Below are positions 40,266-60,580 of a stretch of DNA of 64,000 bases, piece after piece. This stretch comes from Candidatus Altarchaeum sp. (GTDB lineage: Archaea; Altiarchaeota; Altiarchaeia; Altiarchaeales; Altiarchaeaceae). The stretch spans positions 13,791 through 77,790 of the forward strand of contig JAGWDQ010000044.1 in the NCBI GenBank assembly GCA_018260615.1. The letters run 5' to 3'. Both the position numbers and the translations under genes were made by a program. The stretch's first letter is position 1. Each line of letters opens with the position of its first letter. A model generated the notes under the pieces. It searched no databases. It saw nothing but the letters and a program-made list of their open reading frames with translations, and was not told the DNA's origin.

Positions 40266-40292
40266 ATAGTAGTAAAATACAGATATGATAAA

Positions 40293-40429
40293 ATGGAAAT
40301 ATCCAATTTCAAAAAGAACGGAAATATTGTAACATTCACCGTAAAGGGTATGGAAATTAACTTTTCTTTTCTTTAAAAAAGAAAAGAAAACACTACGAAA
40401 AGAAAAAAAATTTAAAATAAAAATTTAAT
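40293..40429. repeat. 59-bp diverged duplicate of rpoD start (40293-40351) + hairpin mini-element 'ACTTTTCTTTTCTTTAAAAAAGAAAAGAAAACACTACGAAAAGAAAAAAAATTT' (40352-40429)
   Basis: 'atggaaatatccaatttcaaaaagaacggaaatattgtaacattcaccgtaaagggtat' vs gene start 40430 'atggacatatcaaacttcaaaaagaacggaaatattgtaacattcaccgtaaagggtat'. Confidence 0.75.
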
Positions 40430-41011
40430 ATGGACATATCAAACTTCAAAAAGAACGGAAATATTGTAACATTCACCGTAAAGGGTATAAACACAGCAAT
40501 GGCAAATGCTATTCGCAGAGCAATAATTACAAATGTTCCGATAGCTGCAATAGAAAAGGTAACAATTGATAAGAATTCATCTGCGCTGGCTGATGAGATA
40601 CTTGCTCACAGATTGGGATTAATACCTTTCAAAACGGATATAAAAAATTTTATAGATACAAATGTTTCATTAGATGTTATAAATGATTCGGACAAATTAA
40701 AAACCATCTATACAAGGGATTTGAAATCGAGCAATCCGGATATTATTCCTGTTTATGACAACATGCCAATAGTAAAACTCTCAAAGGGACAACAAATAAA
40801 ACTTGAAGCGACAGTAGAGCTGGGGAAAGGCAGGGAGCATGTAAAATGGCAGGGCGGTCTGGCAAGTTACGAAATTAACGAAGAAAATAAATTTAACTTT
40901 TTTGTGGAATCATTCATGCAATTAGATGCCGATGAATTAATCAGTGCGGCATGTGACGAATTAATTAAAGAAAACGAACAATTCAGGAACTTTGTTTCAA
41001 CAATAAAATAA
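40430..41011 (+). CDS. rpoD: DNA-directed RNA polymerase subunit D (Rpo3)
   Basis: 'AMANAIRRAIITNVPIAAIEKVTIDKNSSALADEILAHRLGLIPF'; conserved position after S11. Confidence 0.8.
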   Translation: MDISNFKKNGNIVTFTVKGINTAMANAIRRAIITNVPIAAIEKVTIDKNSSALADEILAHRLGLIPFKTDIKNFIDTNVSLDVINDSDKLKTIYTRDLKSSNPDIIPVYDNMPIVKLSKGQQIKLEATVELGKGREHVKWQGGLASYEINEENKFNFFVESFMQLDADELISAACDELIKENEQFRNFVSTIK

Positions 41012-41056: not shown

Positions 41057-41422
41057 ATGGCAAGAATATTTAAAAATCCAAATCCGTTAAGGGTCAAACT
41101 TGTAGATGATTTAAAAAATTTTAATACGGATAAGAATTACGGAATTTGGAATAAAGTGATTAAGGAATTGTCAAGGTCAAGGAAAAACAGGAGAAATGTA
41201 AATTTATGGAAAATAAATAAAAATACAAATGAAGGGGATGTTATTGTCGTGCCGGGAAAAGTGCTTGGGCATGGAGAAATCGGACATAAAGTTACAATTG
41301 CAGCGTTTGAATTTTCAGAAGGTGTAAAGCAAAAAGTAACAAACAATAATGTGCGACTAATGTCAATTTATGAATTGTTTAATGAAAATCCAAAAGGAAG
41401 TAATATTAAAATAATCGGTTAA
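41057..41422 (+). CDS. rpl18e: 50S ribosomal protein L18e
   Basis: N-terminal 'MARIFKNPNPLRVKLVDDLKNF', 121 aa, conserved gene order. Confidence 0.75.
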   Translation: MARIFKNPNPLRVKLVDDLKNFNTDKNYGIWNKVIKELSRSRKNRRNVNLWKINKNTNEGDVIVVPGKVLGHGEIGHKVTIAAFEFSEGVKQKVTNNNVRLMSIYELFNENPKGSNIKIIG

Positions 41423-41445
41423 AAATGATTGTAAATGCTGAAGGG

Positions 41446-41543
41446 CAAAGGTTGAACTTTTCTTTTTTAGAAAAAAAGAAAACATTCAGAAAAGAAAAAA
41501 CACAAAAATAAATTTATAAAATTTATATATTAATATGATTTGT
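41446..41543. repeat. Hairpin mini-element 'AACTTTTCTTTTTTAGAAAAAAAGAAAACATTCAGAAAAGAAAAAACAC...' flanked by 25-bp direct duplication of rplM start
   Basis: 'taaaaatgattgtaaatgctgaagg' at 41421-41445 and 41544-41568. Confidence 0.75.
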
Positions 41544-41548
41544 TAAAA

Positions 41549-42031
41549 ATGATTGTAAATGCTGAAGGACAGGTTCTCGGAAGAATGGCATCTTTTGTGG
41601 CAAAAAGGGTCTTGAGGGGAGATCAGGTAATAGTAGTTAATGCTGAAAAGGCATTGATTTCAGGAACAAAAACAGGAATCCAGACAGAAGCAGACAGAAG
41701 ATTAGGTATAAGAAACTGGGGAAACCCAAAAAAAGGCCCTTATATGATGAAACGGCCTGATAATTTTGTGAGAAGGGCCATAAGAGGAATGTTGCCATAT
41801 AACAAAAACAGATACGGAGCGAGAGGTAGAGAAGCGTTCAAAGATGTAATTGTATTTATGGGCGTTCCGAAAAAAGAGATAGAAAAATACGACAAAACTT
41901 TCAGGCCCGCAAATATTAATGAAATTTCCGATAAAAACATACAAAAAAAACCACTGAGAAAATACGTGTATGTATCTGAATTTTGTAAAATTTTGGGCAA
42001 TAAAACAACAATAAAACAAAATACTATTTAA
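41549..42031 (+). CDS. rpl13: 50S ribosomal protein L13 (uL13)
   Basis: 'MIVNAEGQVLGRMASFVAKRVLRGDQVIVVNAEKALISG'; start at ATG within duplicated target. Confidence 0.85.
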   Translation: MIVNAEGQVLGRMASFVAKRVLRGDQVIVVNAEKALISGTKTGIQTEADRRLGIRNWGNPKKGPYMMKRPDNFVRRAIRGMLPYNKNRYGARGREAFKDVIVFMGVPKKEIEKYDKTFRPANINEISDKNIQKKPLRKYVYVSEFCKILGNKTTIKQNTI

Positions 42032-42997: not shown

Positions 42998-43308
42998 TGC
43001 GGAAGAATAATTTTTTCACACCGCTTCGTATGTTTTATTTTTTAAATTTATTTTTGAACATAAGAAATATGCATTACGTTGAAATTTATTCGGAGATTGA
43101 AGATACAAGAAAAGGTGATGTTTTAAGCAGAGTCGTAAATTTTGATAATGTTCATTTGGACCGTTTGGATATTTTTACATTTTATGATGCAACGGATAAA
43201 TGTATGCTGATTACCAAAATAAAATGTGCTCATTTAAAGACATTAAATAATACAATTCATGATTTGCTTAAAACACAAAATTTAGCCGAAAAAATTTTGG
43301 AAATTTAA
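42997..43308 (+). CDS. Hypothetical small protein (true start possibly internal Met 'MHYVEIY')
   Basis: ORF only; no recognisable motif. Confidence 0.3.
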   Translation: MRKNNFFTPLRMFYFLNLFLNIRNMHYVEIYSEIEDTRKGDVLSRVVNFDNVHLDRLDIFTFYDATDKCMLITKIKCAHLKTLNNTIHDLLKTQNLAEKILEI

Positions 43309-43321
43309 TTTTTGCTGGTAT

Positions 43322-44212
43322 TTACTTTTTAATTAAATTTTCCGCCAATTCACCTGCAATCAATTCGCTTAAATCAATCTTTGCTACTTTATTCGGAATT
43401 GAATTTGTCGCAACGAGTTCGTCGGCAAGTGTTTTTAATATTAAAAAATTTTCATTATCGCAGAATACGCCGTGAACACACGCTAAATTTATACTTGCCG
43501 GATTTTGTTTTTTTATGATCTTCAACGCTTCAATCATAGTTCCACCGCTTGAAATTATATCATCTGCTATCAGAACATCCTTTCCTTCAACACCTAAATT
43601 TTTATCCTCTATTACTATTTTTCCAGTTACCCTGTCTCTTTTTTTGACAAGATAATTGCTTTCGCATTTTAAAATCTTCCCACATTCTTTAGCTGTATCC
43701 AACGCTCCTTCATCCGGCGATATGACCTTTGGATTTTTTAAATTTTTAAAATATTTCGCAATTTCAGAAAACGCATCCATGTTGTAAATTTCAATCCCTT
43801 CGTATTTAAACTTTCTACTTTTCCTGAACTGCTGGTTGTGGGAATTTATGAGAAAAATTTTATCAGCATAACTGTTCAAATTTTTTAATATTACTTCCGC
43901 ACTTAATGCCTCGCCTTTGAGAAAAATTTTATCCTGCCGCATATATGTCAAATAAGGAATTACCAGATTTATACTTTTTGCTTTGCTCCTTTTTATAGCA
44001 TCCAATATCAAAATTGCCTTTAGAAATTCATCACTATTGTAAATACTTTGGACAACAACGCAATCCTCGTTTTCAATATTGCTGATTACTCTCGCATAGA
44101 ACTCGCCGTCTGGAAATTTCTTTAATAAAATTTCTCCATCCATAACATCTAAATTTGCATTTTTTTCCCTTAATTTTTTCCCAACATTAAATCCGAATTC
44201 AAAGATATACAT
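43322..44212 (-). CDS. prs: Ribose-phosphate pyrophosphokinase
   Basis: PRPP-binding 'VLIADDIISSGGTMIEA', 'PDEGALDTAKE'; 296 aa. Confidence 0.8.
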   Translation of the reverse strand: MYIFEFGFNVGKKLREKNANLDVMDGEILLKKFPDGEFYARVISNIENEDCVVVQSIYNSDEFLKAILILDAIKRSKAKSINLVIPYLTYMRQDKIFLKGEALSAEVILKNLNSYADKIFLINSHNQQFRKSRKFKYEGIEIYNMDAFSEIAKYFKNLKNPKVISPDEGALDTAKECGKILKCESNYLVKKRDRVTGKIVIEDKNLGVEGKDVLIADDIISSGGTMIEALKIIKKQNPASINLACVHGVFCDNENFLILKTLADELVATNSIPNKVAKIDLSELIAGELAENLIKK

Positions 44213-44221
44213 TTTAAAATT

Positions 44222-44470
44222 TTGTTTCCATACTACATCACCTCACTTACGCTCACTTCGTTCCACTCACTTCGTTCGTGTCTTTTCAAAACCTCACCTC
44301 ACTTCGTTCGGAGATTTTCAAAACTCTGCGTTTTGAAAACTGCGGTTTTGAAAATCGTGTATTTTCGGGACAAGCCCGAAAATCGTTCGGAGATTCTCAA
44401 ACAAGTTTGAAAATCACCTCGTTTTACTCGGAGATTTTCAAAATCTGCGATTTTGAAAATAGTGCAATTT
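44222..44470. repeat. Intergenic repeat element, TTTTGAAAATC-hairpin family (multiple 'cggagattttcaaaa' / 'ttttgaaaatc' hairpins)
   Basis: 'cactcacttcgttcgtgtcttttcaaaacct' identical to 6762-6792; palindromic 'gattttcaaaa...ttttgaaaatc' units. Confidence 0.7.
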
Positions 44471-44583
44471 AAACAAAAGATATATATAATTAAGTTTTAA
44501 AATAAATTAATAAAAGAATAACAAAGCGAAACCACTCTAAATTAAAAATTAATTAAAAATTTTAATTAAAATTATAAAAAAAT

Positions 44584-45168
44584 ATGTTCCTCACCCATTC
44601 CCTTATAAAGCCAGACACCGTTGAACTGCGAAAGTATCAGGAAGCGATAATCGCAACATCGGCAAATAAAAATACAATAGTTGTACTTCCGACGGGACTT
44701 GGAAAAACGCTGATTGCCGTAATTGTTGCCGCACATCGGCTGGATAAATTTAATGGCTCAAAGGTTCTGTTTTTAGCACCTACCAAGCCGCTTGCAGTAC
44801 AGCATGCAGAGACATTCAGACAAATTTTAAATTTAAAGGACGATGAAATTTGTGTATTCACATCGGCAACACCGACAAATAAGCGAAACGACTTATGGGA
44901 GAAATCACGGGTTATTCTGGCAACGCCTCAAACGATAGACAACGAAATAATGAAAAATTTAGATTTGAGCAATGTTTCTTTTCTGGTTTTTGATGAAGCA
45001 CACAGAGCAGTCGGAAATTATGCTTACGGGTTCATTGCAGGCGAATATATGAAAAAAGCAAAGCATCCGCTGATTATGGGATTGAGTGCTTCTCCGTCAT
45101 CTGATATTGAGAAAATTTCGGAAATTTCAAAAAATTTGTTCATACAGTCGGTTGAAATAAGCACTTAA
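44584..45168 (+). pseudogene. Truncated duplicate of the N-terminal ~190 codons of hef (47477-49765)
   Basis: DNA nearly identical to 47477-48053 from start codon onward (identical antisense ORFs 44637-44861 and 47530-47754); diverges at 45160 and terminates. Confidence 0.85.
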
Positions 45169-45327
45169 ACATAATTTTAAACAGCGAAAAATTTGATTTA
45201 ACCTTATCAAGAAAATTTTTAAACAAAATCAAATTTTTAACGTTCAAAAATTTATTTAATTTAAATACTTCTAATCTAAATTAATTTACAACAATTTACA
45301 ACATGTCCAATGTTTAATTTATTTAAA

Positions 45328-45843
45328 ATGAAAAACACAAATAAAATTTTATTAGGGGTTGGAATAAGTTGTATTTTTGTTATACTAATGGCTTTTGTAA
45401 TGGCTACTGATAATGGAATTGAGAAAGCGTTAAACAAAACAACAAACTAGAGTAGTAAATATGATTCAATTGCTGTCCAGGCAAATAATTCAATTCTTAA
45501 CGAAGTAAAAAACAAAACCTTGTTTGATAAACCCTTAAATAACTCATACTTGCCCAAAATCGGAAAAAAGGGGATAAATTTTTTAGTTATAGGAGACAAA
45601 GTAGTATATTATGATGTGAAAGGTGGAACTTCTAAAAAATACACATTAAATGAAAGTGAATGGAAAGATTTAATAAATATCAAAAAAAGAATGAATAATT
45701 CAATTGATGTGTTGGTAATTAATGATTTTGTTATTAAAAAAAATCATGGACTTATTGAAAATAACATAACTTATGTGGAAATAGATAAAAATAAAATATA
45801 TAAGAAGGTAACTGCTAATATAAGCGCAAAAATTGAAAAATAA
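45328..45843 (+). pseudogene. Putative secreted protein gene interrupted by in-frame TAG at 45448-45450 (signal-anchor N-terminus 45328-45447 continues in frame into ORF 45520-45843)
   Basis: ATG 45328 'MKNTNKILLGVGISCIFVILMAFVMATDNGIEKALNKTTN*SSKYDS...'; same frame as ORF-track 45520 (which uses TTG start). Confidence 0.4.
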
Positions 45844-45857
45844 CCTAAAACTCAAAA

Positions 45858-46340
45858 ATGTCAAGAAAAATAAAAATTTTTGATTTCAAAAAAGCGTGGA
45901 ATGATAGAATAGAAAGGAAAAATATAATTATGTTTATTTTGGCGGTAGCGTTAGGATTAGTTTTAATATCATTAGCCATAACATCCAAATGTATGTCGCT
46001 ATTATTCTCATTTGGATATTTAGGAGATCTTGGCAAAAATTGTGATGTTCGTATACCTATTGATTTTGTTATCCTTGTGTTATTAGTACTAATCTATGAA
46101 TTTATATTTACAGAACATACAAGAATTATCGGAGTATGGTTTGCAAATTTACAAGAGAGGTGGGGAGGAAATATGATTGTATTTAGTTATTTTGCGAGTG
46201 TTGGTTTTTTTGGAGGTATCTTGCAATACTTGATGCCCCATTCTACGATACCTGTGTTGGTATTTGGTGCGCTCTTTATGATCGCTTTCATTTATTCCCT
46301 TATTCCAATTTCATGGCTCAAAAAAATTAAAAAAATATAA
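45858..46340 (+). CDS. Small polytopic membrane protein (4 TM)
   Basis: Hydrophobic helices; 160 aa; inside hef-associated insertion. Confidence 0.45.
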   Translation: MSRKIKIFDFKKAWNDRIERKNIIMFILAVALGLVLISLAITSKCMSLLFSFGYLGDLGKNCDVRIPIDFVILVLLVLIYEFIFTEHTRIIGVWFANLQERWGGNMIVFSYFASVGFFGGILQYLMPHSTIPVLVFGALFMIAFIYSLIPISWLKKIKKI

Positions 46341-46519
46341 AACAGCAAAAATGGAGATTAAAATATTTTCACTGTCTGAAAATAGCAATAAAGAAATAAA
46401 AAACAAAACAATAGACATGTTGCGAAATAATTTTCAATTTATTGCTACAATATATTCATAATAATTTCAATAAACCATATAAACTATTTCACAACAACTC
46501 TATTATTTTACAGTAAAAA

Positions 46520-47242
46520 ATGAATAAAAAACAAACAAAAATTTTATTGCTCCTCATAACAATCATTATTGGAGTAGTAATAATAAGTGGATGCGTAAAC
46601 AATGAAGAAAATAAAATCGGCGAAGAAGGAATGAATGAAACAAACGACTATTATCCATTAGAAGTGGGAAATCAATGGGTGTTTGCGGTGAAAAAGGAAA
46701 CTGAAGGGGAAAATCCTCAAAATAGTATAACAACAGTACAAATCACTAAAAAAGAAATGATAAACAATATAGAAACTTTTGTTATAGAATATGAGACGGA
46801 CAATAACACATCCCAAATAGAATATGTTAATAAAGAATATGGAAAAATTTTATGCTGTAGGCGAATATCTCAAGGAAAGGAACAAAATTATTATCCTCTA
46901 CAATTATGGGCTGATTTTTCATCACTTAAAAAGGGAAAGAAATGGAAATGGGCTGACAATACAATAAATGTAGAGTTAGAAGGAGAAATACTTGGAAAAG
47001 ACGTAATAACCGTTCCTGCAGGAACATTTGAGACATATATAGTAAAAATCACAACAAGTCCGAAAGATAATGTTAGAGGAATTGCAAACGTAAAGTGGAT
47101 GGGGTGGTTCGCCAAAAATATTGGAGTTGTAAAAGAAGATGCACATATTTATGCTAATGTTTCCATTAATAATAATAAGCGACTAATAGTTAACACTCAT
47201 ATAATAGCGGAACTAAAAAGTTATAACATTTCAAAAAAATAA
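46520..47242 (+). CDS. Secreted/lipoprotein-like protein (signal peptide + 'SGCVNN')
   Basis: N-terminal 'MNKKQTKILLLLITIIIGVVIISGC' signal with Cys; 240 aa. Confidence 0.45.
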   Translation: MNKKQTKILLLLITIIIGVVIISGCVNNEENKIGEEGMNETNDYYPLEVGNQWVFAVKKETEGENPQNSITTVQITKKEMINNIETFVIEYETDNNTSQIEYVNKEYGKILCCRRISQGKEQNYYPLQLWADFSSLKKGKKWKWADNTINVELEGEILGKDVITVPAGTFETYIVKITTSPKDNVRGIANVKWMGWFAKNIGVVKEDAHIYANVSINNNKRLIVNTHIIAELKSYNISKK

Positions 47243-47476
47243 AATGAAAAATAATGTTTTGTTTATATTTTCTTTTTGTGCCTATTTTCCTGATTTTTGT
47301 ATGAGATTGGGTAAGATGATTTTTTAAATTTTTATACCTTCTCAAATAATATTTTTCACTGAAAAGTAAAGCCAAATAAGTCAATTTACCATGTTTTATT
47401 GAGTGGATATGAATTTTTTAAACAAAAAACTAATTCTTAAAATATTTTAACATACTGTTGTTCATTACTTATTATT

Positions 47477-49765
47477 ATGTTCCTCACACACCCCCTCATA
47501 AAGCCGGACACCGTTGAACTGCGAAAGTATCAGGAAGCGATAATCGCAACATCGGCAAATAAAAATACAATAGTTGTACTTCCGACGGGACTTGGAAAAA
47601 CGCTGATTGCCGTAATTGTTGCCGCACATCGGCTGGATAAATTTAATGGCTCAAAGGTTCTGTTTTTAGCACCTACCAAGCCGCTTGCAGTACAGCATGC
47701 AGAGACATTCAGACAAATTTTAAATTTAAAGGACGATGAAATTTGTGTATTCACATCGGCAACACCGACAAATAAGCGAAACGACTTATGGGAGAAATCA
47801 CGGGTTATTCTGGCAACGCCTCAAACGATAGACAACGAAATAATGAAAAATTTAGATTTGAGCAATGTTTCTTTTCTGGTTTTTGATGAAGCACACAGAG
47901 CAGTCGGAAATTATGCTTACGGGTTCATTGCAGGCGAATATATGAAAAAAGCAAAGCATCCGCTGATTATGGGATTGAGTGCTTCTCCGTCATCTGATAT
48001 TGAGAAAATTTCGGAAATTTCAAAAAATCTGTTCATACAGTCGGTTGAGATAAGGACCGAAAATGACAGCGATGTCCGGGAGTATATAATGAAAGTGGAG
48101 GAAGAATGGGTAAAGGTTGAACTGCCTGCGGACTTTAAAGGAATAAGGGATAAACTTGCGGACTTGCTTAAATTTTACCTGAAACAGTTAAAGGATATGA
48201 ATTACATTGATACGATTAATTTGACAAATATTAACAAAAAGGACTTATTGGCTGTTCAGGAAAGAATAAGGGGCGACATATTGAGCGGAAACGGAAATTT
48301 CGATGCGGCATCGCTTATTGCAAAAATTATAAAACTTCATTATGCTCTTGAACTTATAGAGACGCAGGGAATTTTTACTTTATACAGGTATCTTGAACGG
48401 CTGAATCTGCAAAAAGGTAAAGGAGTAAAAGAGATGTTTTCCGATGAGCGTATGAAGGAAATCTGTGAAAATGTTAAAATTTTGTATGATGCAAAAACAG
48501 ACCATCCGAAGTTAGATGCAATCTTAAAAATTTTAAAGGAAGAGTTGGGTAGTTCGGAAGACAGAAAAAACAGGAAAATTTTGCTGTTCACTCAATACCG
48601 GGACACTGCCGAAAAAATTTATGAAATTTTAACGAACAACAACATAAAATGCGAGAAATTTATAGGTCAGGCAAGGAGAGATAATGACAAAGGAATGACG
48701 CAAAAAGAGCAAATTGCATCACTTGAGAAATTCAAAAATAATACATTTAATGTGCTGATTGCAACTTCTGTCGCAGAAGAAGGCCTGGATATTCCCAAGG
48801 TTGATATTGTAATATTTTATGAGCCGATTCCAAGCAGTATAAGAGCAATACAAAGGAGGGGAAGAACGGGAAGAATGTATGAAGGAAAGGTGATAATTTT
48901 GATGACAAGGGGGACGAGGGACGAAGGATATTACTGGAGTGCGGTTTCAAAGGAAAGAAAGATGAAGGAATATCTGACAAAATTCCAGATTTCAGGAAAA
49001 GAAGGCATTGAAAAAGAAGTACAAAAAAGACATGGGCAGCAAAGTATTTTATTGTACGACGATAATAATAAAGAGGATAACAAAGATAATGAAGAAAACA
49101 ATAACAAAGATAAAAACGAAAGACCTAAAATTTATGCCGATATACGGGAGCGAAACACGGAAATTTTTAAAATTTTAAATGAAAAGGCAGATGTCATAGT
49201 CAGGCAGTTAGAGGTTGGGGACTATATATTGAGCGAAAATGTATGTGTTGAGAGAAAGACAGCCGGTGATTTCTTACAGTCAATTGTTGATAGACGACTA
49301 CTTGAACAGGCACAAAATTTAGTGAGAAATTTTGAAATTCCGATAATTATCATAGAAGGTGAATTAAATTTGTCTTCAAGAAATATTCATCCGAATGCAG
49401 TCCGGGGAATGCTCGCCGCAATAGCAACTGACTTTAAAATTTCCATCATTCCGACAAAAGACGAAAATGATACCGCCGAAATGCTGTTCATAATCGCAAA
49501 AAGAGAGCAGGAAGAAAAAAGAAATCCGGTTGCTTTAATCGGTGAAAAGAGGGCTTACACTCTTGCCGAGAGACAGCACTTAATTGCCGAATCACTTCCA
49601 AATGTGTCTGCTGTGATTGCCGAACGGCTGCTTGAACGTTTTAAGACGATAAAAAAAATTGCAAATGCTGGCATTAAGGAATTAATAAAAGTTGAAGGAA
49701 TCGGATTAAAAAAGGCAGATGAAATTTTTAAGGTTACACATTCGGAGTATAAAAAGGAGAAATAA
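47477..49765 (+). CDS. hef: Hef-like helicase-nuclease (SF2 helicase + ERCC4/XPF nuclease + HhH2)
   Basis: 'VVLPTGLGKTLIA', 'LVFDEAHRA', helicase C 'ATSVAEEGLDIP', ERCC4 'ENVCVERKTAGDFLQS', C-terminal HhH; D/N/K/E-rich insert ~aa 525-555. Confidence 0.85.
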   Translation: MFLTHPLIKPDTVELRKYQEAIIATSANKNTIVVLPTGLGKTLIAVIVAAHRLDKFNGSKVLFLAPTKPLAVQHAETFRQILNLKDDEICVFTSATPTNKRNDLWEKSRVILATPQTIDNEIMKNLDLSNVSFLVFDEAHRAVGNYAYGFIAGEYMKKAKHPLIMGLSASPSSDIEKISEISKNLFIQSVEIRTENDSDVREYIMKVEEEWVKVELPADFKGIRDKLADLLKFYLKQLKDMNYIDTINLTNINKKDLLAVQERIRGDILSGNGNFDAASLIAKIIKLHYALELIETQGIFTLYRYLERLNLQKGKGVKEMFSDERMKEICENVKILYDAKTDHPKLDAILKILKEELGSSEDRKNRKILLFTQYRDTAEKIYEILTNNNIKCEKFIGQARRDNDKGMTQKEQIASLEKFKNNTFNVLIATSVAEEGLDIPKVDIVIFYEPIPSSIRAIQRRGRTGRMYEGKVIILMTRGTRDEGYYWSAVSKERKMKEYLTKFQISGKEGIEKEVQKRHGQQSILLYDDNNKEDNKDNEENNNKDKNERPKIYADIRERNTEIFKILNEKADVIVRQLEVGDYILSENVCVERKTAGDFLQSIVDRRLLEQAQNLVRNFEIPIIIIEGELNLSSRNIHPNAVRGMLAAIATDFKISIIPTKDENDTAEMLFIIAKREQEEKRNPVALIGEKRAYTLAERQHLIAESLPNVSAVIAERLLERFKTIKKIANAGIKELIKVEGIGLKKADEIFKVTHSEYKKEK

Positions 49766-49782
49766 ACAAAATGTTCACACAA

Positions 49783-49925
49783 TCACCTCACTTACGCTCA
49801 CTTCGTTCGTGTATTTTCAAATCTCTGTGATTTGAAAATCGTTCGGAGATTTTCAAAATCTGTTGATTTTGAAAAAGACACAAAGGAGTAATTCTCTGTG
49901 GCTTATTGGCTTGGTGTGAGGGAGT
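49783..49925. repeat. Intergenic repeat element (TTTTGAAAATC modules + partial long-hairpin module 'GACACAAAGG...GGCTTGGTGTGAGGG')
   Basis: 'cctcacttacgctcacttcgttcgtgt' as in 44241-44270; 'gattttcaaaatctgttgattttgaaaa' palindrome. Confidence 0.7.
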
Positions 49926-49954
49926 AATAAAAAAGGATAAATAAAAATAAGAAG

Positions 49955-51235
49955 TTGAAAGTTAAATTTATAAAAACTAAATTTAAACCAAATCATGCTA
50001 AAATGGATTCAAAAATACAATTATACAAGATGTCTCTTGATGAGAGGCGGAAAACGATTAAGGAACTTGCAAATTTAACTGATGAAGAAATCGCTTACTA
50101 TAATGGAAATCTCACAAACATTGCAGACAAGATGGTTGAAAATGTAATCGGAACTTATGAAATGCCGCTGGGAATAGCAACAAATTTTTTAATAAACGGG
50201 AATGACTATTTAATTCCGATGGCAATAGAAGAGGCATCTGTCATTGCGGCTGCCTCAAATGCTGCAAAAATTGCACGGGTTAAAGGCGGATTTACAGCAC
50301 ATAGTGATGAGCCGGTAATGCTCGGACAAATTCAGGTAATAAACATAGATGATGTTGAAGTAGCACAGATTGAAATTTTAAGGCATAAAAAAGAAATAAT
50401 GGAGATGGCCAATACCTGCGATCCGACATTAGTAAAATTCGGAGGAGGGTGCAAAGACATTGAAGTGCGGAAAATCGGTGATGATATGTTAGTTGTGCAT
50501 TTACTTGTTGATTGCAGGGATGCTATGGGAGCAAATGCCGTAAATACGATGGCAGAAAAAGTTAAGGAAAAAATAAAAGAACTAACAGAGGGGGATGTTT
50601 TATTAAAAATTATTTCAAATCTGGCAATATACAGAAAGGCATACTCTTATGCAATATTTGATAAAGAGGCATTAGGCGGAGAGGATGTTGTTAACAAAAT
50701 TTTAATGGCTTACGAGTTTGCAGAAAGTGATATTTTCAGATGTGCTACACACAACAAAGGCATAATGAACGGAATTGATGCTCTGATAATGGCAACGGGA
50801 AATGATTTCAGGGCGATTGAAGCGGGGGCACACAGTTATGCTGCATTGAACGGATACGCTCCGTTAACACATTACAGCAAAGATAAAGACGGAAATTTAG
50901 TCGGAAGCATTGAAATTCCGATGGCTGTTGGAATAATCGGCGGAGCAACAAGGACTCATCCGCAGGCAAAAACAAATTTAAAAATTTTAAATGTGAAGTC
51001 GGCAGGGGAACTTGCAGAAGTTGCGGCATCTCTTGGCCTGGCACAAAATTTAGCAGCATTGAAAGCACTGTCAACAGAGGGAATTCAGAGAGGACACATG
51101 GAATTACACGCGAGAAATATTGCAATAAGTGCGGGAGTTCCGTCTGAAATTGCCGACAAGGTTGCAGAAATTATGATAAAGAATAAGAAAATCAACACAG
51201 AATACGCAAAAGAAATTTTTGAAAAAATAAAATAA
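49955..51235 (+). CDS. hmgA: Hydroxymethylglutaryl-CoA reductase (class I, archaeal)
   Basis: 'EMPLGIATNFLINGNDYLIPMAIEEASVIAAASNAAK', 'DAMGANAVNTMAE', 'GTVGG'-like 'GIIGGATR'; true start may be Met at 50003. Confidence 0.85.
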   Translation: MKVKFIKTKFKPNHAKMDSKIQLYKMSLDERRKTIKELANLTDEEIAYYNGNLTNIADKMVENVIGTYEMPLGIATNFLINGNDYLIPMAIEEASVIAAASNAAKIARVKGGFTAHSDEPVMLGQIQVINIDDVEVAQIEILRHKKEIMEMANTCDPTLVKFGGGCKDIEVRKIGDDMLVVHLLVDCRDAMGANAVNTMAEKVKEKIKELTEGDVLLKIISNLAIYRKAYSYAIFDKEALGGEDVVNKILMAYEFAESDIFRCATHNKGIMNGIDALIMATGNDFRAIEAGAHSYAALNGYAPLTHYSKDKDGNLVGSIEIPMAVGIIGGATRTHPQAKTNLKILNVKSAGELAEVAASLGLAQNLAALKALSTEGIQRGHMELHARNIAISAGVPSEIADKVAEIMIKNKKINTEYAKEIFEKIK

Positions 51236-51238
51236 AAA

Positions 51239-53842
51239 ATGAGCGAAACAGAAGAAGTAACAAATAAGGACAAAAGGTATTTATTTAGCTGGAAGGACAT
51301 TCCGGGAAAAGACAGCGAGAAATTTCTGAAATTTTTGGAGAATGACCTGAAAATATTGTGGGCAAAGACAGCGGAAATCAAAAAAAGCGATGATGGTAAA
51401 ATCATATCTGTTACTGACAAATTAAATAATAAAAATTTAATTGAATTTAAATTTACTGAAAAAGAAGGCAAAGTAACACTTAAAATTTCAGGAGGAAAGA
51501 CCTGCAAATACCTTTTAAAAGAAGAAGGAGGCAAGACAAAGATATATAAATTGGGAAAAGATATTAAAGAATATCTGGACGATCTGGAAAAGATAATTAC
51601 AGGTGATAATAAAAGTAAAGAAGGCAAAAAAGCAGATGAGACCGAAGAAAAGAAAGAGGGTAAGTATTTGTTTAACTGGGATGATGTTCCGGGAGATAAT
51701 ACAGAATTCATAAAATTTTTAAAAGACGGACTAAAAATAGAGTGGGTGGAGAATGCTAAAATCGAAAAAAGTAAGAATAAGGAAACAATAACTGTTACGA
51801 ATAAAAACAAAAATTCAGAGTCAATTACTATCAAACTTAATAAAACAGAAAAGAAGGTAAGTTTAGAATACAATGGTGAAACACACGAATACATTTTAAA
51901 AGAAGAGAATGGCAGGTTAAACATATACGAATACACAATAAAAGCAAACATAGTAGAAAAGATTGAAGATATAAATCCGGAGATTTTTGAGAAGTATGTA
52001 ACAACAGCAGAAATTCCAATACCAAAAAAAACAATTGACCAGGTTATCGGGCAGGATAAGGCCGTTGAGATAATAAAAAATGCTGCTATCCAGAGAAGAC
52101 ACATAATGCTTATCGGTGATCCGGGAACCGGAAAATCAATGCTTGCCAAAGCAATGGCGGAATTACTTCCCGTTGAAGAATTAATGGATGTTCTTTCCGG
52201 CAGAAATTTTGAAGATGAAAATAATCCGAAAATAAAGGTTGTTAAGACGGGTGAAGGAAAAGAAATTGTTAAAAAATCTTCCGAAGGCACACAGGCATCC
52301 TCTTCAGGAGAAAGCAAAACATTCCTTTATATTGCTGTTTTCTTTATTATTCCTCTGGCAATTTATTTTTATGCGATAACTCATTATATTCAGATTGATT
52401 CAACTATTATTTTTGCACCGATGCTCGTCGGAATGTTTTTACTGCTGTTTCAGGGAATGAATTTCAGGCAAATGATGGGCGTACCAACCCACGGAAATGT
52501 GCCAAAGATAATTGTTGACAACTCAAACAAAAAACAGGTGCCTTTTTTTGACGCAACTGGTTCGCATGCAGGTGCATTGCTTGGTGATGTCAAGCACGAT
52601 CCATTGCAATCAGGGGGCTTGGGGACGCCTCCGCATTTAAGGGTTATGGCAGGAATGATACATAAGTCCCATAAAGGGGTACTTTACATTGATGAAATTT
52701 CAACATTAGGAAAGTCGCAGATGGATTTACTTACCGCCATGCAGGAAAAACAACTTTCAATAACAGGGAGAAGTGAAATGAGCAGCGGTGCAATGGTGAT
52801 GAGTGATCCTGTTCCGTGTGATTTTATATTAGTTGCCGCAGGAAATTTAGTGGATATGGAGCACATGCATCCTGCATTAAGGTCCAGAATAAGGGGCTAC
52901 GGTTATGAAATTTATTTGGATAATACAATGCCTGATACAACAGACAACAGAAGAAAATTAGTCAGATTTGTTACTCAGGAGGTAATAAAAGACGGAAAAA
53001 TTCCTCATTTTACAAAAGAAGCGGTTGATGTAATAATCAGAGAAGCGGAAAGAAGAGCGGGAATGAAAGGAAAATTAACATTGATTTTCAGGGAACTTGG
53101 AGGACTGATAAGAGCATCCGGGGACCTGGCGGTAAAAAGAAAACATAAATTTGTAGATGCAAATGATGTAATGGATGCAAAAAAAATAGCGAGAACACTT
53201 GAAGGGCAAATCGGTGATATTTACTTAGATAAGCGTAAAGAATACGAAGTAATTCTGACGGAAGGTGTTAGTGTCGGCAGGGTAAACGGATTAGCTGTTT
53301 TCGGTGATGTCGGAACGGTTTTACCGATTGTTGCCGAGGTTTCACCGGCGTCAAGTGAAGGAAGAGGACAAATAATAGCAACGGGAAAGCTGGGAGAAAT
53401 CGCGAAGGAGGCAATAACAAATGTATCTGCAATTATTAAAAATTTTATGGGAAAGGAAATTTCAAACTACGATATTCATGTACAATTCCTGCAAACTTAC
53501 GAAGGTGTTGAAGGTGATTCCGCATCCATTGCCGTAGCAATAGCAATGATATCCGCACTTGAAGATGTCGGAATATCCCAGGAGGTTGCAATAACCGGCT
53601 CGCTTACGGTGAGAGGAGAAGTTCTGCCTGTCGGAGGAGTAACACAAAAGATTGAGGCGGCAATAGAAGCGGGACTTAAAAAAGCCATAATTCCAAAGAG
53701 CAATGAGAAGGATGTGCTGTTAGAAAAACGATACGAGGGAAAAATTGAAATTATTCCTGTCACAACAATTATTGAGGCAATTAAGTACGCATTTAAGGAC
53801 AGCAGTAAGATAACGGAGAAAATGAATAAAATGGTAAAGTAA
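51239..53842 (+). CDS. lonB: Archaeal membrane-bound Lon protease (LonB) with ~260-aa N-terminal extension made of repeated 'FSWxDxPG' domains
   Basis: Walker A '[13 protein letters not shown]', membrane hairpin inserted in AAA module, Ser-Lys dyad '[16 protein letters not shown]' / '[14 protein letters not shown]'; N-terminal '[28 protein letters not shown]...' and '[33 protein letters not shown]'. Confidence 0.85.
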
Positions 53843-56073: not shown

Positions 56074-56316
56074 ATGGCTAAAAATAATTTAATGCAATTT
56101 AAGAAATGTAATTGTCCTCAAGAGTATTGGGAAGAAATTGTAGTTGACCATGACGAAAATTTTGATGACAGGTCTGTAATATATTTCCATTGTGATTTTT
56201 GTGGCGAGGATCATGCAATAGTTGATTTTTATACGGGAGAAATACTTTATCCAAAACAAAATGAGGAAAACAAATCCAAAGTTTCAACACTTAAAAAATC
56301 AGCACTTAAAAAATGA
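56074..56316 (+). CDS. Small Cys-containing (zinc-ribbon-like) protein
   Basis: 'CNCPQEY...HCDFCGEDH' ; 80 aa. Confidence 0.3.
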   Translation: MAKNNLMQFKKCNCPQEYWEEIVVDHDENFDDRSVIYFHCDFCGEDHAIVDFYTGEILYPKQNEENKSKVSTLKKSALKK

Positions 56317-56468
56317 TAAATGATAAATCAACTGAGGATTTAATAAACCAATGCATTAACGGTTATAAATTTTCCTTTGAAGAAGCAAGGGACTTGCTAA
56401 ATTTTGACCTAAACACACTTGGCTTGATTGCAGATGAACTAAAAAATAATAAAGAAATAATCCGATAA
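56304..56468 (+). pseudogene. Truncated copy (first ~50 codons) of the radical SAM gene at 58230
   Basis: Encodes 'MINDKSTEDLINQCINGYKFSFEEARDLLNFDLNTLGLIADELKNNKEII*' vs gene 'MMDTKKSVEEIINQCINGHKFSFEEAKDLLNFDLNTLGLIADEIRNKF...'. Confidence 0.8.
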
Positions 56469-56620
56469 CATTTGTTAAGGTTAAGGTTATAATTATTATA
56501 AGGACATAATTATCAATCATAAAATTAAAAACCAAAATGATGGGCAGGGGACGGATATAAACCACATGAAATAAGTGGATAAAAGTAAAGGACTAAAAGA
56601 AACATGTAAAAAACCAAAGT

Positions 56621-56716
56621 ATGAAAAAAACAGCATTTATGGCACATAGTTTTGAGGGTGGTGAAGTTGTGAAGAATGTTGTAAATAGAGGTATTAATAA
56701 TTACGATGGATATTGA
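56621..56716 (+). pseudogene. Truncated copy of the start of the TIR-domain gene (cf. 56993)
   Basis: 'MKKTAFMAHSFEGGEVVKNVVNRGINNYDGY*' vs 'MKKTAFIAHSFEDDESVKKIVNGF...'; preceded by same ~150-bp spacer as 56860-56992. Confidence 0.75.
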
Positions 56717-56860
56717 AAAATCAATTGATGAATTAATAAATAAATGTATTAACGGTTATAAATTTTCCTTTGAAGAAGCAAAGGACTTACTAAATTTTGA
56801 CTTAAACACGCTTGGCTTAATTGCAGATGAACTAATGAATAATAAAGAAATAATATGATA
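56706..56860 (+). pseudogene. Second truncated copy (first ~50 codons) of the radical SAM gene at 58230
   Basis: 'MDIEKSIDELINKCINGYKFSFEEAKDLLNFDLNTLGLIADELMNNKEII*'. Confidence 0.8.
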
Positions 56861-56992
56861 ATTTATTAATTGTAATGTTGTAATTATTAATCATAAAATT
56901 AAAAACCAAAATGGCGGGCAGGGGACGGATATAAACCACATGAAATACGTGGATAAAAGCAAAGGACTAAAAGACATGTAAAAAACCAAAGT

Positions 56993-58138
56993 ATGAAAAA
57001 AACAGCATTTATAGCACACAGTTTTGAAGATGATGAATCTGTGAAAAAAATTGTAAATGGATTTAAAGATATTTTTAGTTGTTATTTTGACATCGTTACT
57101 GGTGAAGAACCAAGTTCGAATAAATCTATTTCCAAGAAGGTTGAAGGTATGATAAAAGAGCAGGATGTGTTTATAGGTATTGTAACAAAAAGAAAAGACA
57201 GCGAATGGAGCACATCAGCATGGGTTCTAAACGAAGCAGTAACAGCAATGAATTTTAGCAAGCCAATTATCCTTTTGGTTGAAAAAGGTATAAATGAAAA
57301 AAATATGGGGATGGTAGGTAATGCAAGAGAATATATTTATTTTGATAGTAATGATATTTTTGAATATATTCCAAAAGTTATTAAAATTATTGAAGAGATA
57401 AATAAGCCATCTCCGGAAAATAATCTTCGTTTTCCTTACAAATTCAGAGAAGTAATAAACAGGATTACAATATACTCCGAAGGTAGGGGAATTTATGATA
57501 GAAGATGTATGCTGGAAGTACTTTCTGAAGATTTTACCAGGGTCGTTCATGCGATAGGACTAAGTGGTTGTACGCCAAAAACTACTGTTTTAAAACCTTT
57601 TAAAGATATCAAAACTACAAAAATCTCCGACAGATATGTGAAAGATCAATCTTTGTTTTGGAAGATATTTGAACCTAGGGACCTTGTTTTAAATCCCAAA
57701 AGGGTTTTATACGGGGGTGAATGGAAATCTTTGGATATTCCTGATGCAGAGGGATTTAATTTTTCTCTTAATTTCGGAAAATTTCCAATCGGAAGTACAA
57801 TAGAATATTCATACGGATTCTCCTGTAAAGACATGTTTCCCCTGAACAAATATCAACTTAAGAATGGACAGCTTTATATGGGGAAGACAAATAAACTTTC
57901 GGACTGGACGGAAGTAATAAGTGAAGTTGATAAGCTTGTGTTTGTCATTCAATTTGACCATGATTATAAACTAAAAGGATCGCCTGAGCTAATAATAACA
58001 ACACAAGATGGAGATAAAATAAAACACAGTTATAAATTTGAAAAGGAAACATCACTTTTTTACGAGACATACAAGGTAAGCATAGGAAGAACAACTCCTG
58101 GATTCAAATATGTTGTTGAATGGAAACCTGAAAATTGA
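56993..58138 (+). CDS. TIR-domain protein with ~250-aa C-terminal domain of unknown function
   Basis: N-terminal 'MKKTAFIAHSFEDDESV' (TIR betaA 'FISHS..D'), 'STSAWVLNEAV' matching TIR 'SxWCxxEL' catalytic-Glu motif; C-terminal beta-rich domain without recognisable motifs; 381 aa. Confidence 0.6.
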   Translation: MKKTAFIAHSFEDDESVKKIVNGFKDIFSCYFDIVTGEEPSSNKSISKKVEGMIKEQDVFIGIVTKRKDSEWSTSAWVLNEAVTAMNFSKPIILLVEKGINEKNMGMVGNAREYIYFDSNDIFEYIPKVIKIIEEINKPSPENNLRFPYKFREVINRITIYSEGRGIYDRRCMLEVLSEDFTRVVHAIGLSGCTPKTTVLKPFKDIKTTKISDRYVKDQSLFWKIFEPRDLVLNPKRVLYGGEWKSLDIPDAEGFNFSLNFGKFPIGSTIEYSYGFSCKDMFPLNKYQLKNGQLYMGKTNKLSDWTEVISEVDKLVFVIQFDHDYKLKGSPELIITTQDGDKIKHSYKFEKETSLFYETYKVSIGRTTPGFKYVVEWKPEN

Positions 58139-58229
58139 TATTCAAACATATTTTTTAGTGTTTTGATGACATAGTAAATACTATTTTTAAAAGATATATT
58201 AATAAAAGTAGATAAATGTAGGGATAATT

Positions 58230-59327
58230 ATGATGGATACTAAAAAATCAGTTGAAGAGATAATAAATCAATGCATTAACGGCCATAAATTTTCCTTTGA
58301 AGAAGCAAAGGACTTGCTAAATTTTGACTTAAACACGCTTGGCTTAATTGCAGATGAAATAAGGAATAAATTTTGTGGCAATACCGTAACCTTTGTCTGC
58401 GACACAACTATAAACTACACAAATATTTGTTCAGGCAAATGTAAATTTTGTGCATTTTACCGAAACAAATCCGCAGGCGACGCTTATGTATTAACCATTG
58501 ACGAAATTCTGCAAAAAACTGAAAAAGCAGGAAATTTGGGAGCGACACAGGTTTTGCTTCAGGGCGGATTAAATAAAGATATTTCATTAAGTTATTACGA
58601 AACCATTATTAAAGCAGTTAAACAAAAATTTCCCGATGTTCAGAGACACTTTTTTTCTGCTGCTGAAATTTACTTTATCGCAAAAAACAACAATTTATCT
58701 GTTGATGAGGTGCTGGAAAGATTCAAAGAGTGCGGATTGCAGAGTTTCGGAGGCGGAGGTGCTGAAATTTTAGTTACTCAAATAAGGAAAGAAATTTCGC
58801 CGGATAAAATTTCCGCCGAAGAATGGAAAGATGTTATTATGAAGGCACATAAAACCGGAATTAAAACATCTGCAACTATGGTTTATGGATTTGGCGAAAG
58901 TAAAGAAGACCGTCTAAGGCATTTGTTATTTTTAAGGGACATTCAGTATGAAACGAATGGATTTACTGCATTTATTCCGTGGAGTTTTCAGCCCGAAAAT
59001 ACTGCTTTGGGGCAAAATAAATTTTATAAATTTCCGGCTGGGGGAATTGATTACCTTGAAATAATTGCATTGGCGAGGATAATATTCAATAAATTTTTAA
59101 GGAACATTCAGGCATCCTGGCTGACAGAAGGCGAAAAGCTCGCACAGATTGCTTTATTTTACGGAGCAAATGATTTCAGCGGAACGATAATAGAAGAAAA
59201 TGTCGTAAAAGAGGCGGGAATAAAATTTAGCGGAAAGACAAAAGAAGAAATGATAAATTTAATTCAGCAAGTTGGAAGAATTCCCGCACAAAGAGATACA
59301 TTTTACAATGTTCTGAAAGTGTTTTGA
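58230..59327 (+). CDS. Radical SAM enzyme of the CofH/CofG/MqnC/MqnE family (paralog of 54856-55992)
   Basis: 'NYTNICSGKCKFCAFY', 'GGGGAEIL', 'MVYGFGES'; 365 aa. Confidence 0.75.
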   Translation: MMDTKKSVEEIINQCINGHKFSFEEAKDLLNFDLNTLGLIADEIRNKFCGNTVTFVCDTTINYTNICSGKCKFCAFYRNKSAGDAYVLTIDEILQKTEKAGNLGATQVLLQGGLNKDISLSYYETIIKAVKQKFPDVQRHFFSAAEIYFIAKNNNLSVDEVLERFKECGLQSFGGGGAEILVTQIRKEISPDKISAEEWKDVIMKAHKTGIKTSATMVYGFGESKEDRLRHLLFLRDIQYETNGFTAFIPWSFQPENTALGQNKFYKFPAGGIDYLEIIALARIIFNKFLRNIQASWLTEGEKLAQIALFYGANDFSGTIIEENVVKEAGIKFSGKTKEEMINLIQQVGRIPAQRDTFYNVLKVF

Positions 59328-59393: not shown

Positions 59394-60338
59394 ATGGAAC
59401 TTCCGTGGACAGAAAAATACAGGCCGAAATTTTTAAAGGATGTAGTAGGACAGGAAAAAATCACCGAAAGAATGACTGCGTATGTTAAAGACAAAAATTT
59501 ACCGCATTTACTTTTTGCAGGTCCTGCAGGAACAGGAAAGACAACAACCGCATTATGTTTAGCAAGAGAATTCTTCGGGGAAAATTTCAGAGAGGGATTT
59601 CTGGAATTAAACGCAAGCGATGAGCGAGGAATAGACGTCGTCAGAGGAAAAATAAAGGAATTTGCAAGAACAATGCCAATAATTATGGACTTCAAACTCA
59701 TATTTCTCGACGAAGCAGACGCCCTGACCAACGATGCCCAGCAGGCCCTCCGAAGAACAATGGAACAATACACAAAAACATGCAGATTCATACTCTCATG
59801 CAATTATTCTTCAAAACTCATAGATCCGATTCAAAGCAGATGCGCTGTTTTCAGATTCCGTAAAATCCAGCGGACAGCAATCAACGAACATCTCAAAAAA
59901 ATTTTAAATACAGAACAGGTGAAATTTACCGATGACGGAATTAATGCAATTACCGAAATAAGTGAAGGCGATGTACGAAAATCAATAAACATTCTCCAGT
60001 CGGCGTCTGTGTGCGGAGAAGTCAACGAAGAAAATGTATTTAATATCGCATCTTATGCAAAGCCAGATATTATAAGAAATATTTTAAAATTAGCAATTGA
60101 CGGGAAATTTTTGGATGCACGAAATATGCTTGACAATATTATGCTTAATTACGGGATTGCCGGAGAGGATGTGCTAATTCAGATGAACAGGGAAATTTTT
60201 TATGTTGAAGGAATAGATGATAAAATGAAGATGAAGGTTGTTGATGCCATCGGAGAATGTAATTTCCGGCTGGTTGAAGGGGCAAATGAAAGAATACAGG
60301 TTGCAGCATTGCTCGCAAAAATTGCTGTCCTGAAGTAG
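59394..60338 (+). CDS. rfcS: Replication factor C small subunit
   Basis: 'LLFAGPAGTGKTTTALCLAREFFGENFREGFLELNASDERGIDVVR', 'IFLDEADALT', 'SRC' motif 'IQSRCAVFRF'. Confidence 0.9.
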   Translation: MELPWTEKYRPKFLKDVVGQEKITERMTAYVKDKNLPHLLFAGPAGTGKTTTALCLAREFFGENFREGFLELNASDERGIDVVRGKIKEFARTMPIIMDFKLIFLDEADALTNDAQQALRRTMEQYTKTCRFILSCNYSSKLIDPIQSRCAVFRFRKIQRTAINEHLKKILNTEQVKFTDDGINAITEISEGDVRKSINILQSASVCGEVNEENVFNIASYAKPDIIRNILKLAIDGKFLDARNMLDNIMLNYGIAGEDVLIQMNREIFYVEGIDDKMKMKVVDAIGECNFRLVEGANERIQVAALLAKIAVLK

Positions 60339-60580
60339 AAATCCGCCTTTTTCTTTTAGGAAAAGAAATACGCTCACTTCGCTCGTGTCTTTTCAAAACC
60401 TCTGCGGTTTTGAAAAAATCAGAAGAATACTCACACAAAGCCACAAAGTCACAAGGTTACAGAATATAACTCCTTTGTGTCTCTGTGTCTCCGTGTGAGG
60501 CTCATAAAACGAACTTTCCCGTACGATGAAAAAAGCACGGGGGAAAAAGAAAAAAGTAAACCGTTGAAAAATTTTTGCTT
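60338..60580. repeat. Nested repeats: hairpin mini-element ('CCTTTTTCTTTTAGGAAAAGAAA' ... 'GAAAAAGAAAAAAGTAAACCGTTGAAAAATTT') interrupted by inverted copy of the long-hairpin element (60370-60528)
   Basis: 60545-60578 matches 2188-2223 nearly exactly; 60400-60528 is reverse complement of 54717-54830. Confidence 0.75.

Follow-up and report, generated by a model that had tools for sequence, protein, structure and literature searches.

A small envelope-gene island between two copies of the hef start in Candidatus Altiarchaeum: probable entry by a single homologous crossover

Campbell-type insertion-duplication is known from the integration of suicide vectors and from Hfr/F' formation. Archaeal integrative elements of the SSV and pNOB8 types insert at the end of a gene and provide a replacement copy. 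Finally, near-clonal populations are said to carry flexible genomic islands of cell-surface genes, a concept of Rodriguez-Valera and colleagues. Here we analyse a 2308-bp island at the start of the helicase-nuclease gene hef in a 64,000-nucleotide (nt) stretch of Horonobe-type Candidatus Altiarchaeum. This stretch is called the window below. All positions are window coordinates, and features lie on the plus strand unless stated otherwise. The relatives of the Hef protein place the clade in Candidatus Altiarchaeum/Altiarchaeales.

The locus is most easily compared with a Campbell insertion. As there, direct repeats of a homologous fragment flank the insert, one of them truncated and the other running into the intact gene; on our alignments these repeats are reciprocal chimeras of a resident and an incoming allele, and recombination between them could reverse the insertion. 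Unlike the suicide-vector and Hfr cases, this would be a natural event in an uncultivated archaeon, and the insert has no visible replication or transfer functions. Unlike in a typical Campbell insertion, the fragment begins exactly at a start codon and is accompanied by its own upstream region, the target gene is kept intact, and the circle is one that we infer. It is probable, at roughly 0.6, that the island entered the hef locus by a single homologous (Campbell-type) crossover via a 586-bp copy of the hef start.

The direct repeats occupy positions 44584-45169 and 47477-48062, are 586 bp long and are spaced by 2893 bp. Their homology sets in 1 nt 5' of the ATG and decays at about 45166-45172. 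The upstream repeat, copy A (44584-45168), is a truncated hef' of 194 codons and a TAA, which is created by a G to T substitution at 45166 where hef has GAA. It retains only the RecA-like helicase domain 1 and takes the place of an attL-like repeat. Its exact 194-residue product is on record from an 84-kb NCBI contig. Copy B (47477-48062), in the attR-like position, is the 586-bp 5' segment of the intact hef (47477-49765, 762 residues), which encodes a helicase, an ERCC4 nuclease and an HhH domain. The latter gene is a full Hef: it matches NCBIfam NF010337 over residues 2-759 with 927 bits (cut-off 610) and contains the Pfam domains DEAD, Helicase_C, ERCC4 and HhH. An exact look-up of the full Hef product of the window returned no record elsewhere. 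The first-pass annotation had described a near-exact copy of the hef 5' end followed by the intact gene at 47477, and this description holds, the copy being the 194 codons at 44584-45168. For annotation purposes, copy A is better regarded as an integration by-product than as a second helicase gene.

The arrangement was found in several independent assemblies. The exact lipoprotein sequence of the island and the same gene order are present on four other contigs: an 89-kb contig from JGI (L001), a k141-named MEGAHIT contig from ENA (L002) and the HGW-Altiarchaeales-1 contig from NCBI (L003), all three of the same strain as the window, and a Logan contig (L004). Both junctions and an in-frame TAG codon within the island recur in these four and in a k141 contig from ENA (L023) that carries copy A, its junction and the TAG. 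These five further assemblies represent different assemblers and at least two samples. Thus the duplication and the TAG are not errors of a single assembly. The sister contigs share two samples with the Horonobe groundwater (HGW) metagenome-assembled genome. Two Horonobe samples underlie L001, L002 and L004 and L010 and L023-L026, and the Logan contigs L004 and L011 belong to runs SRR3546456 and SRR3546457.

Empty sites were observed as well. In nine other Altiarchaeum lineages the prs gene, on the minus strand, lies directly beside a single hef. These are the A3 lineage (L005), seven further lineages (L006, L007, L015-L018, L020), and a sister strain known from two assemblies, a 108-kb contig from JGI (L024) and a 77.7-kb contig from NCBI (L027). 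The sister strain is diverged by about 3%, and its hef is 96.3% identical to that of the window. The region 44213-44583, upstream of copy A, aligns with the sequence directly 5' of the full-length hef in L024, L027, L007, L006 and L005. Copy A has thus kept the ancestral promoter side, and the intact hef now stands behind island DNA. The latter region (47243-47476, the right end of the island, 21% GC) is a presumed new promoter. Over 234 nt it differs at 17 positions (93% identity) from the region in front of hef in two contigs with variant islands (L010 and the 2.2-kb k141 contig L025), and is confined to island-bearing contigs, being absent from the empty-site strains. Archaeal promoters called by eye in sequence of 21-30% GC are unreliable, and we dropped such calls; we claim for this region only an island-derived origin. 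An insertion at the hef start had been proposed in the first-pass annotation together with a comparison with related genomes, and that comparison does yield uninterrupted prs-hef regions, including the one in the sister strain. At the level of sequence, the insertion and its polymorphism among strains are shown.

In the three other assemblies of the same strain (L001, L002, L003), copies A and B differ at 44-47 of 582 sites, mostly synonymous, while the flanks are identical to the window. In L001 the divergence is 7.6%, with a synonymous divergence (dS) of 0.27 and a ratio of nonsynonymous to synonymous divergence (dN/dS) of 0.10, as is seen for functional orthologues. On the branch of copy A, 13 synonymous changes stand against 6 nonsynonymous ones. 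Thus the divergence arose in working genes rather than in a decaying fragment, and it is mostly older than the meeting of the two alleles. Decay of copy A in place as a pseudogene was dropped in view of the dN/dS of 0.10, and a simple tandem duplication in view of the unrelated sequences 3' of the two copies. The window itself has only nine differing sites in the first 582 nt, from which a recent duplication had been concluded earlier. This conclusion does not stand, given the 7.6% difference in three assemblies of the same strain.

The origin of the two copies can be seen from 45 sites that distinguish A from B in L001. In the empty-site allele of L024 the sites are of A type as far as 44718 and of B type from 44724 onwards, with the pattern AAABAAAAA|BBBB... 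and B at nearly every later site. A single breakpoint fits 40 of the 45 sites, a score reached in none of 20,000 permutations (p<5e-5). The crossover interval inferred from this pattern is 44718-44724, equivalent to 47611-47617 in copy B. The empty-site allele shares derived states with A at 44599 and 44694, and with B at 44724, 44773, 44775 and 44793. If the resident allele is rebuilt as A 1-137 plus B 138-560, it differs from the empty-site alleles at 14-20 of 560 sites (2.5-3.6%), close to the value of about 2.7% in hef downstream. The incoming allele, rebuilt as B 1-137 plus A 138-560, differs from them at 51 of 560 sites (9%). As judged from these alignments, each of the two copies joins a part of the resident allele to a part of a second, more diverged one, in reciprocal fashion. 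Such reciprocal chimeras are the hallmark of homologous recombination of the Campbell type, be it integration or excision. Duplication in place is disfavoured, as it would start both copies as the resident allele; illegitimate joining at one end is disfavoured too, since copy A would then be of the resident type throughout.

The proposed course of events is as follows. The incoming DNA, probably circularised, would have carried its own 586-bp hef start, preceded by the sequence now at 47243-47476. It would have recombined with the resident hef, the exchange taking place near 44718-44724. The outcome is seen in the sequence: copy A follows the native upstream region, is of the resident type at its 5' end and of the incoming type further on, and stops at codon 194; copy B follows the island upstream region, is of the incoming type at its 5' end and of the resident type further on, and continues into the intact gene. 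In this way hef is preserved but read from island-derived upstream DNA, with copy A remaining as a by-product behind the ancestral promoter region. The 586-bp repeats would stay substrates for host recombination, allowing loop-out of the island, gene conversion, and shuffling of hef 5' alleles between strains. We infer the circular intermediate, the dependence on host recombination, the new promoter and the reversibility.

Several observations weigh against a Campbell-type entry. Firstly, the same chimera pattern would result if the island were older and the L024/L027 lineage had lost it by recombination between A and B. Secondly, 5 of the 45 informative sites do not fit a single breakpoint, and the alleles of three contigs with variant islands (L010, L025, L026) do not form a clean reciprocal set. 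Thirdly, the incoming hef allele has no identified donor and no known transfer vehicle. The only attP-like contig is L025, in which the order is island right end, hef', island left end, consistent with an attP-like or a tandem configuration. It is identical to L010 for 1602 nt and may be a chimeric path through a collapsed repeat; its downstream variant of the first island gene is 84% identical to that of L010, and it is thus not a simple circle of the L010 unit. A search for closure of L025 onto the left end of L010 gave no match. Finally, all haplotypes come from short-read metagenome assemblies of multi-strain samples, and the fine mosaics may in part be artefacts.

A separate question is why the two copies are nearly identical in the window. 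The near-identity is peculiar to it among the assemblies of this strain. Five of the nine A-B differences are in the first 30 nt (44595, 44598, 44599, 44604, 44613) and four in the last 30 nt (45136, 45156, 45162, 45165), and the interior 44614-45135 is 100% identical. Both window copies share one mosaic of A-type and B-type sites, and they remain distinguishable only in the outermost 30 nt or so, next to the unique flanks. This reflects either secondary homogenisation by gene conversion or an assembly collapse, with roughly even odds. That two repeats of 94% identity were collapsed in assembly or polishing, and that the true genome is like L001, has somewhat less than an even chance in our estimate. 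Such a collapse would account for the shared mosaic and its limits, for the fact that the full Hef product of the window has no record elsewhere, and for the distribution of differences between the window and L001. There are 42 differing sites over the 12.7-kb overlap, and 37 of them are within the two hef repeats; between 42000 and 50000 all 37 differences are within the repeats. The other five cluster at 51316-51675 in the lon gene, overlapping a region with internal repeats, and pose the same question, being either conversion or assembly error.

On the other hand, the independent contig L023 has the same copy A haplotype, including the B-type patch (44928-44971) and a C at 45042. The switch from A-type at 44908 to B-type at 44928 takes place within 20 nt, which would not follow from simple popping of de Bruijn bubbles. 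The truncated copy of L025 and the full copy of L010 are also nearly identical, with 4 differences in 560 sites, each differing from the window copies at about 30 sites, and the hef of L010 is itself an A/B mosaic. In view of the L025/L010 near-identity, the L010 mosaic and the patch shared with L023, homogenisation within genomes seems to take place in nature, and the identical interiors of the window may be real and the result of very recent conversion. Within 11.5 kb, only seven sites distinguish L001 from L002; all of them are in copy B, and five agree with the empty-site allele. When L010 is compared with the window or with L001, dS amounts to 0.225 inside the segment of 586 bp and to 0.04 over the following 750 nt of hef, about a five-fold excess, which is expected if recombination is focused on the segment. 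The pattern resembles concerted evolution in that copies within a genome (A and B of the window, L025 and L010) are closer than the same copy across strains, and in the two-way mosaic tracts. It differs from clear cases in that on present data the identity of the hef repeats is not separable from assembly collapse. A literature search for gene conversion in Altiarchaeum gave nothing. A practical lesson is that one assembly of a strain may show paralogous repeats of 94% identity as identical, and another as diverged.

Among other explanations for the origin of the locus, the strongest is an old duplication in place of hef 1-586 together with the island, by template switching, unequal exchange or duplicative insertion, followed by divergence in place and later loss of the island in the empty-site strain. 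Copies A and B do group together against the A3 lineage at 16 sites, compared with 4 and 6 for the other groupings; excision by recombination between A and B would yield the same allele with an A-type 5' part and a B-type 3' part; and gene-start duplications beside small inserts elsewhere in the window suggest a tendency to template switching. However, a decaying fragment is expected to accumulate about three nonsynonymous changes per synonymous one, at odds with the 13 synonymous and 6 nonsynonymous changes on the A branch and with the A-B dN/dS of 0.10. Moreover, the A-B divergence (7.3-7.6%) exceeds that between the island-bearing and empty-site strains (about 2.7%), and therefore this scenario needs long purifying selection on a one-domain helicase stub in addition to the secondary loss. 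We regard it as unlikely, though worth keeping in mind.

Much less probable is the remnant of a site-specific integrative element, a provirus or plasmid, that targeted the hef 5' end and has since lost its integrase. The locus does share with integrase islands the regenerated target gene with a partial copy at the far end, an atypical, low GC content, variability among strains and the coexistence of empty and occupied sites; indeed, empty-site, attL-like, attR-like and attP-like configurations are all present. Unlike such islands, no integrase or fragment of one, and no Rep or viral family, was found in any of at least three island variants, and there was no match in IMG/VR. The repeat is 586 bp of gene-length homology instead of a core of tens of bp. 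The exchange point is inside the repeat and depends on the variant, being at about 44718-44724 in the window type and at an offset of about 440-520 in the L026/L010 type. The target is the 5' end of a protein-coding gene, not a tRNA gene.

The remaining candidates were rejected. A transposon, an insertion sequence (IS) or a miniature inverted-repeat transposable element (MITE) does not agree with a 586-bp duplication, with the merely weak AT-rich inverted matches between the island ends and with the lack of a transposase match; a provirus or other viral element was dismissed as there were no viral hallmarks in PHROGs and no IMG/VR relatives. That the duplication itself is an assembly artefact over a single real hef 5' end is barely conceivable, for although repeats are error-prone in metagenome assemblies and L003 has local deletions within both copies, six assemblies agree on it, both unique junctions recurring in the five further assemblies, and in L002 variants specific to A or B follow one another at distances below 141 nt all the way between the flanks, which phases each haplotype to its own junction if 'k141_' in the contig name, as we read it, means k=141.

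An extension of the Campbell-type entry may also be considered. The island with its 586-bp hef start could be a recombinase-free mobile cassette, which would form a circle by host recombination, pass from one Altiarchaeum strain to another and re-enter any hef by a single crossover. We consider this doubtful. In such a cassette hef would always be regenerated, as the fragment has the ATG at its start and is accompanied by a promoter. With every cycle a part of the fragment would be exchanged with the host allele, leading to the gene-like dN/dS of 0.1 and making the 586 bp of hef a shuffling hotspot. Arrays of cassettes separated by hef' copies, at which L025 hints, would resemble an integron with a gene fragment as the attachment site. 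Another possibility is that the 194-residue Hef stub behind the native promoter is selected itself, e.g. as a modulator of Hef.

The island has a GC content of 26.6%, the lowest of any 2.3-kb stretch in the window (mean 32.9%, standard deviation 2.2). Its left end (45169-45309) starts where the hef homology decays (45166-45172) and contains an imperfect inverted repeat, 45173-45199 and 45226-45252. The same left junction is found in L023, L009, L025 and L026. Three genes follow, as described in the first-pass annotation: a disrupted signal-anchored gene (45310-45843), a membrane protein gene (45858-46340) and a lipoprotein-like gene (46520-47242).

The first gene, ORF188, is interrupted by a TAG at 45448-45450. 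The 46-residue open reading frame (ORF) at 45310-45450 contains one hydrophobic anchor, and its frame runs on past the TAG into an ORF of 107 residues (45520-45843, start codon TTG). The C-terminal domain is related to a family of 110-residue proteins found in other islands. The context of the codon is AAC TAG AGT in the window, L001, L002, L004 and L023. In contrast, L009, L010 and L011 have AAG GAG AGC in an uninterrupted gene of 188 codons with 98.9% nucleotide identity, the difference from this sister-strain sequence at the TAG being an adjacent double substitution GG to CT. By comparison with these homologues, the TAG is a GAG to TAG nonsense mutation that parts the membrane anchor from the domain, and the split gene is most likely dead in the window strain. 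Of the two explanations offered earlier, an inactivating mutation is thus supported by the GAG of the sister gene, and read-through or recoding is not, as TAG terminates the gene of the replication factor C (RFC) small subunit and the homologue has a sense codon. Decoding of the TAG, by pyrrolysine, a suppressor tRNA or programmed read-through, so that the 177-codon ORF is functional, has next to nothing left to recommend it. The frame is indeed open for 177 codons, and TAG is a rare stop, ending 2 of the 53 ORFs in the window (TAA 42, TGA 9), but such rarity fits a genome of 33% GC. One of these two is the RFC small subunit (59394-60338), which ends at its TAG five residues past the Rep_fac_C C-terminal domain. 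A tRNA scan found no tRNA in the 64-kb window. The split ORF should be annotated as a pseudogene and not as a case of recoding.

The second gene encodes a multi-pass membrane protein of 160 residues that belongs to no known family. It was described earlier as having four transmembrane segments; three strong hydrophobic segments were found, and a possible weaker fourth was judged by eye, not from the scan. This gene is absent from the L010-type island. The third gene encodes a protein of 240 residues with a signal sequence ending in a lipobox-like ISGC. It matches PF21347 (DUF3108_like) with 30.1 bits (gathering cut-off 27). In its AlphaFold2 model, with a predicted local distance difference test (pLDDT) score of 73, the protein resembles exported YmcC/LolA-like lipoproteins with an open beta-barrel; the top matches in PDB are 3fzx and 4fvs, with E-values from 1e-7 to 1e-8 and template modelling (TM) scores of only 0.42-0.50. 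Five relatives or clusters of this lipobox family were found among 5.8 billion proteins, and the family, which is also seen in L013 and L014, appears restricted to Altiarchaeales. Altiarchaeum has been described as double-membraned, and a fold similar to that of bacterial outer-membrane lipoproteins may be of interest in this connection.

The cargo is thus an Altiarchaeum-specific cell-envelope module. Profile scans with Pfam, PHROGs, NCBIfam and PADLOC, each of a subset but together covering all ORFs of the window, L010 and L023 islands, and of the large L009 ORF by Pfam alone, matched no integrase, transposase, Rep, viral or defence family in any island variant. Nothing was matched beyond DUF3108_like, except that PHROGs gave two marginal matches to families of unknown function. 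The PADLOC matches of copy A are generic helicase matches. Three IMG/VR scans, with the DUF3108-like protein, ORF188 and the junction DNA, gave no match, and neither did Rfam over 43000-50500 at a permissive threshold. Searches by tblastn for a source copy of the island proteins in the window and all other loci found only self matches.

At least three variants of the island share the same two junction sequences. The window variant has the order hef', ORF188 with the TAG, the four-segment membrane protein, the lipoprotein, hef. In L010 the order is a 110-residue protein, a 153-residue membrane protein, the intact ORF188, a 31-residue remnant of the 110-residue family, a 65%-identical lipoprotein, a stump of a large secreted protein, a 128-residue secreted protein, the same upstream region and hef. 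In L009 the lipoprotein is followed by a secreted protein of more than 696 residues. L025 and L026 have hef' followed by the 84%-identical variant of ORF188; L026 has the native upstream region and hef' with a different island left end. On a contig of a distant Altiarchaeum (L013), the gene order is 110-residue family, lipoprotein, membrane protein, large secreted protein. From ORF188 to the lipoprotein gene, nucleotide identity of the window and L010 islands falls from 98.9% to 79%. In these respects the locus is similar to flexible genomic islands: the genes are small, specific to the clade, and encode secreted, membrane and lipoproteins; the content varies between strains with flanks of 97-100% identity; and the sequence itself is a mosaic, with 99% identity in one gene and 79% in the next. 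Unlike such islands, it is only 2.3 to at least 3.4 kb long, is bounded by a duplicated gene fragment and not by two core genes, and contains no recognised glycosylation or S-layer genes.

The variant in L023 has an extra insert and a different prs flank. The insert (98 nt, L023 positions 3686-3783) is MITE-like, with short terminal inverted repeats (CTACTC...GAGTAG) and a 12-nt target duplication, GAAAATTTTTAA, corresponding to window positions 45211-45222, and was seen in this strain only. The same contig has, between orf103 and prs, an inserted ORF of 431 residues that could not be annotated (L023 244-2831; window equivalent 43309-44212). The prs of L023 is 78% identical and has an N-terminal extension similar to repeats at 24909-25261 and 51277-51774 of the window. 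The site between orf103 and prs is a second variable spot adjoining the hef island.

Other repeats were observed in the window. The linker that joins the helicase half of Hef to its nuclease half (about 48990-49120) is of low complexity and rich in Asn, Lys, Asp and Glu. It expands from strain to strain by NEENNNKD units, giving proteins of 762, 794 and 818 residues; this expansion is apparently why hef is split between two ORFs in the L010 assembly. A family of dispersed intergenic repeats (..CTCACTTCGTTCG..TTTTCAAAAC..) is present at 44237-44470, within the ancestral hef upstream region, and at 49775-49880, 6747-6807, 60354-60402 and 1465-1506. It flanks the whole hef locus on both sides in direct orientation, a 27-nt stretch being 100% identical at 44237 and 49782, and there are copies in L006 and L024 also. 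No Rfam match to this family was found in 43000-50500.

At three gene starts, the first 16-59 nt and some upstream bases are duplicated 121-137 nt upstream: 40289-40351 and 40426-40488 (the rpoD start), 41403-41447 and 41527-41571 (the rpl13 start), 2103-2150 and 2224-2271. Each pair is split by a small insert with a hairpin, TTTTCTTTT..AAAAGAAAA, and an A-rich tail (3 matches, 0.02 expected). Upstream of rpoD in L006 the A-rich tail is present without the hairpin and without the duplicate. Template switching is suggested by the hairpin, which resembles the native tail in inverted orientation. A related variant of the stem is at 60510-60575. Kinship of the left end of the hef island with these inserts was considered and dropped, as there is no sequence similarity. 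Long direct repeats are found at 28092-28391 and 29385-29684 (300 nt, 89%) and in three copies within 56288-58369 (162 nt, 77-88%); they are situated in neighbouring paralogous genes or intergenic DNA.

The event at hef is of a known kind, Campbell-type insertion-duplication, and is documented here in an uncultivated archaeon, with natural configurations in an unusually complete set. The island appears to move by means of a captured piece of a housekeeping gene and host recombination. If confirmed, this would be a simple natural case of integrase-free island mobility in archaea, and would account for the roughly five-fold higher diversity of the first 586 bp of hef relative to the rest. Near-identical genotypes have been reported across depths and years at the Horonobe site (PMC11657941). 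In the otherwise near-clonal deep-subsurface populations of Altiarchaeum, the differences between strains are concentrated in small islands of envelope genes.

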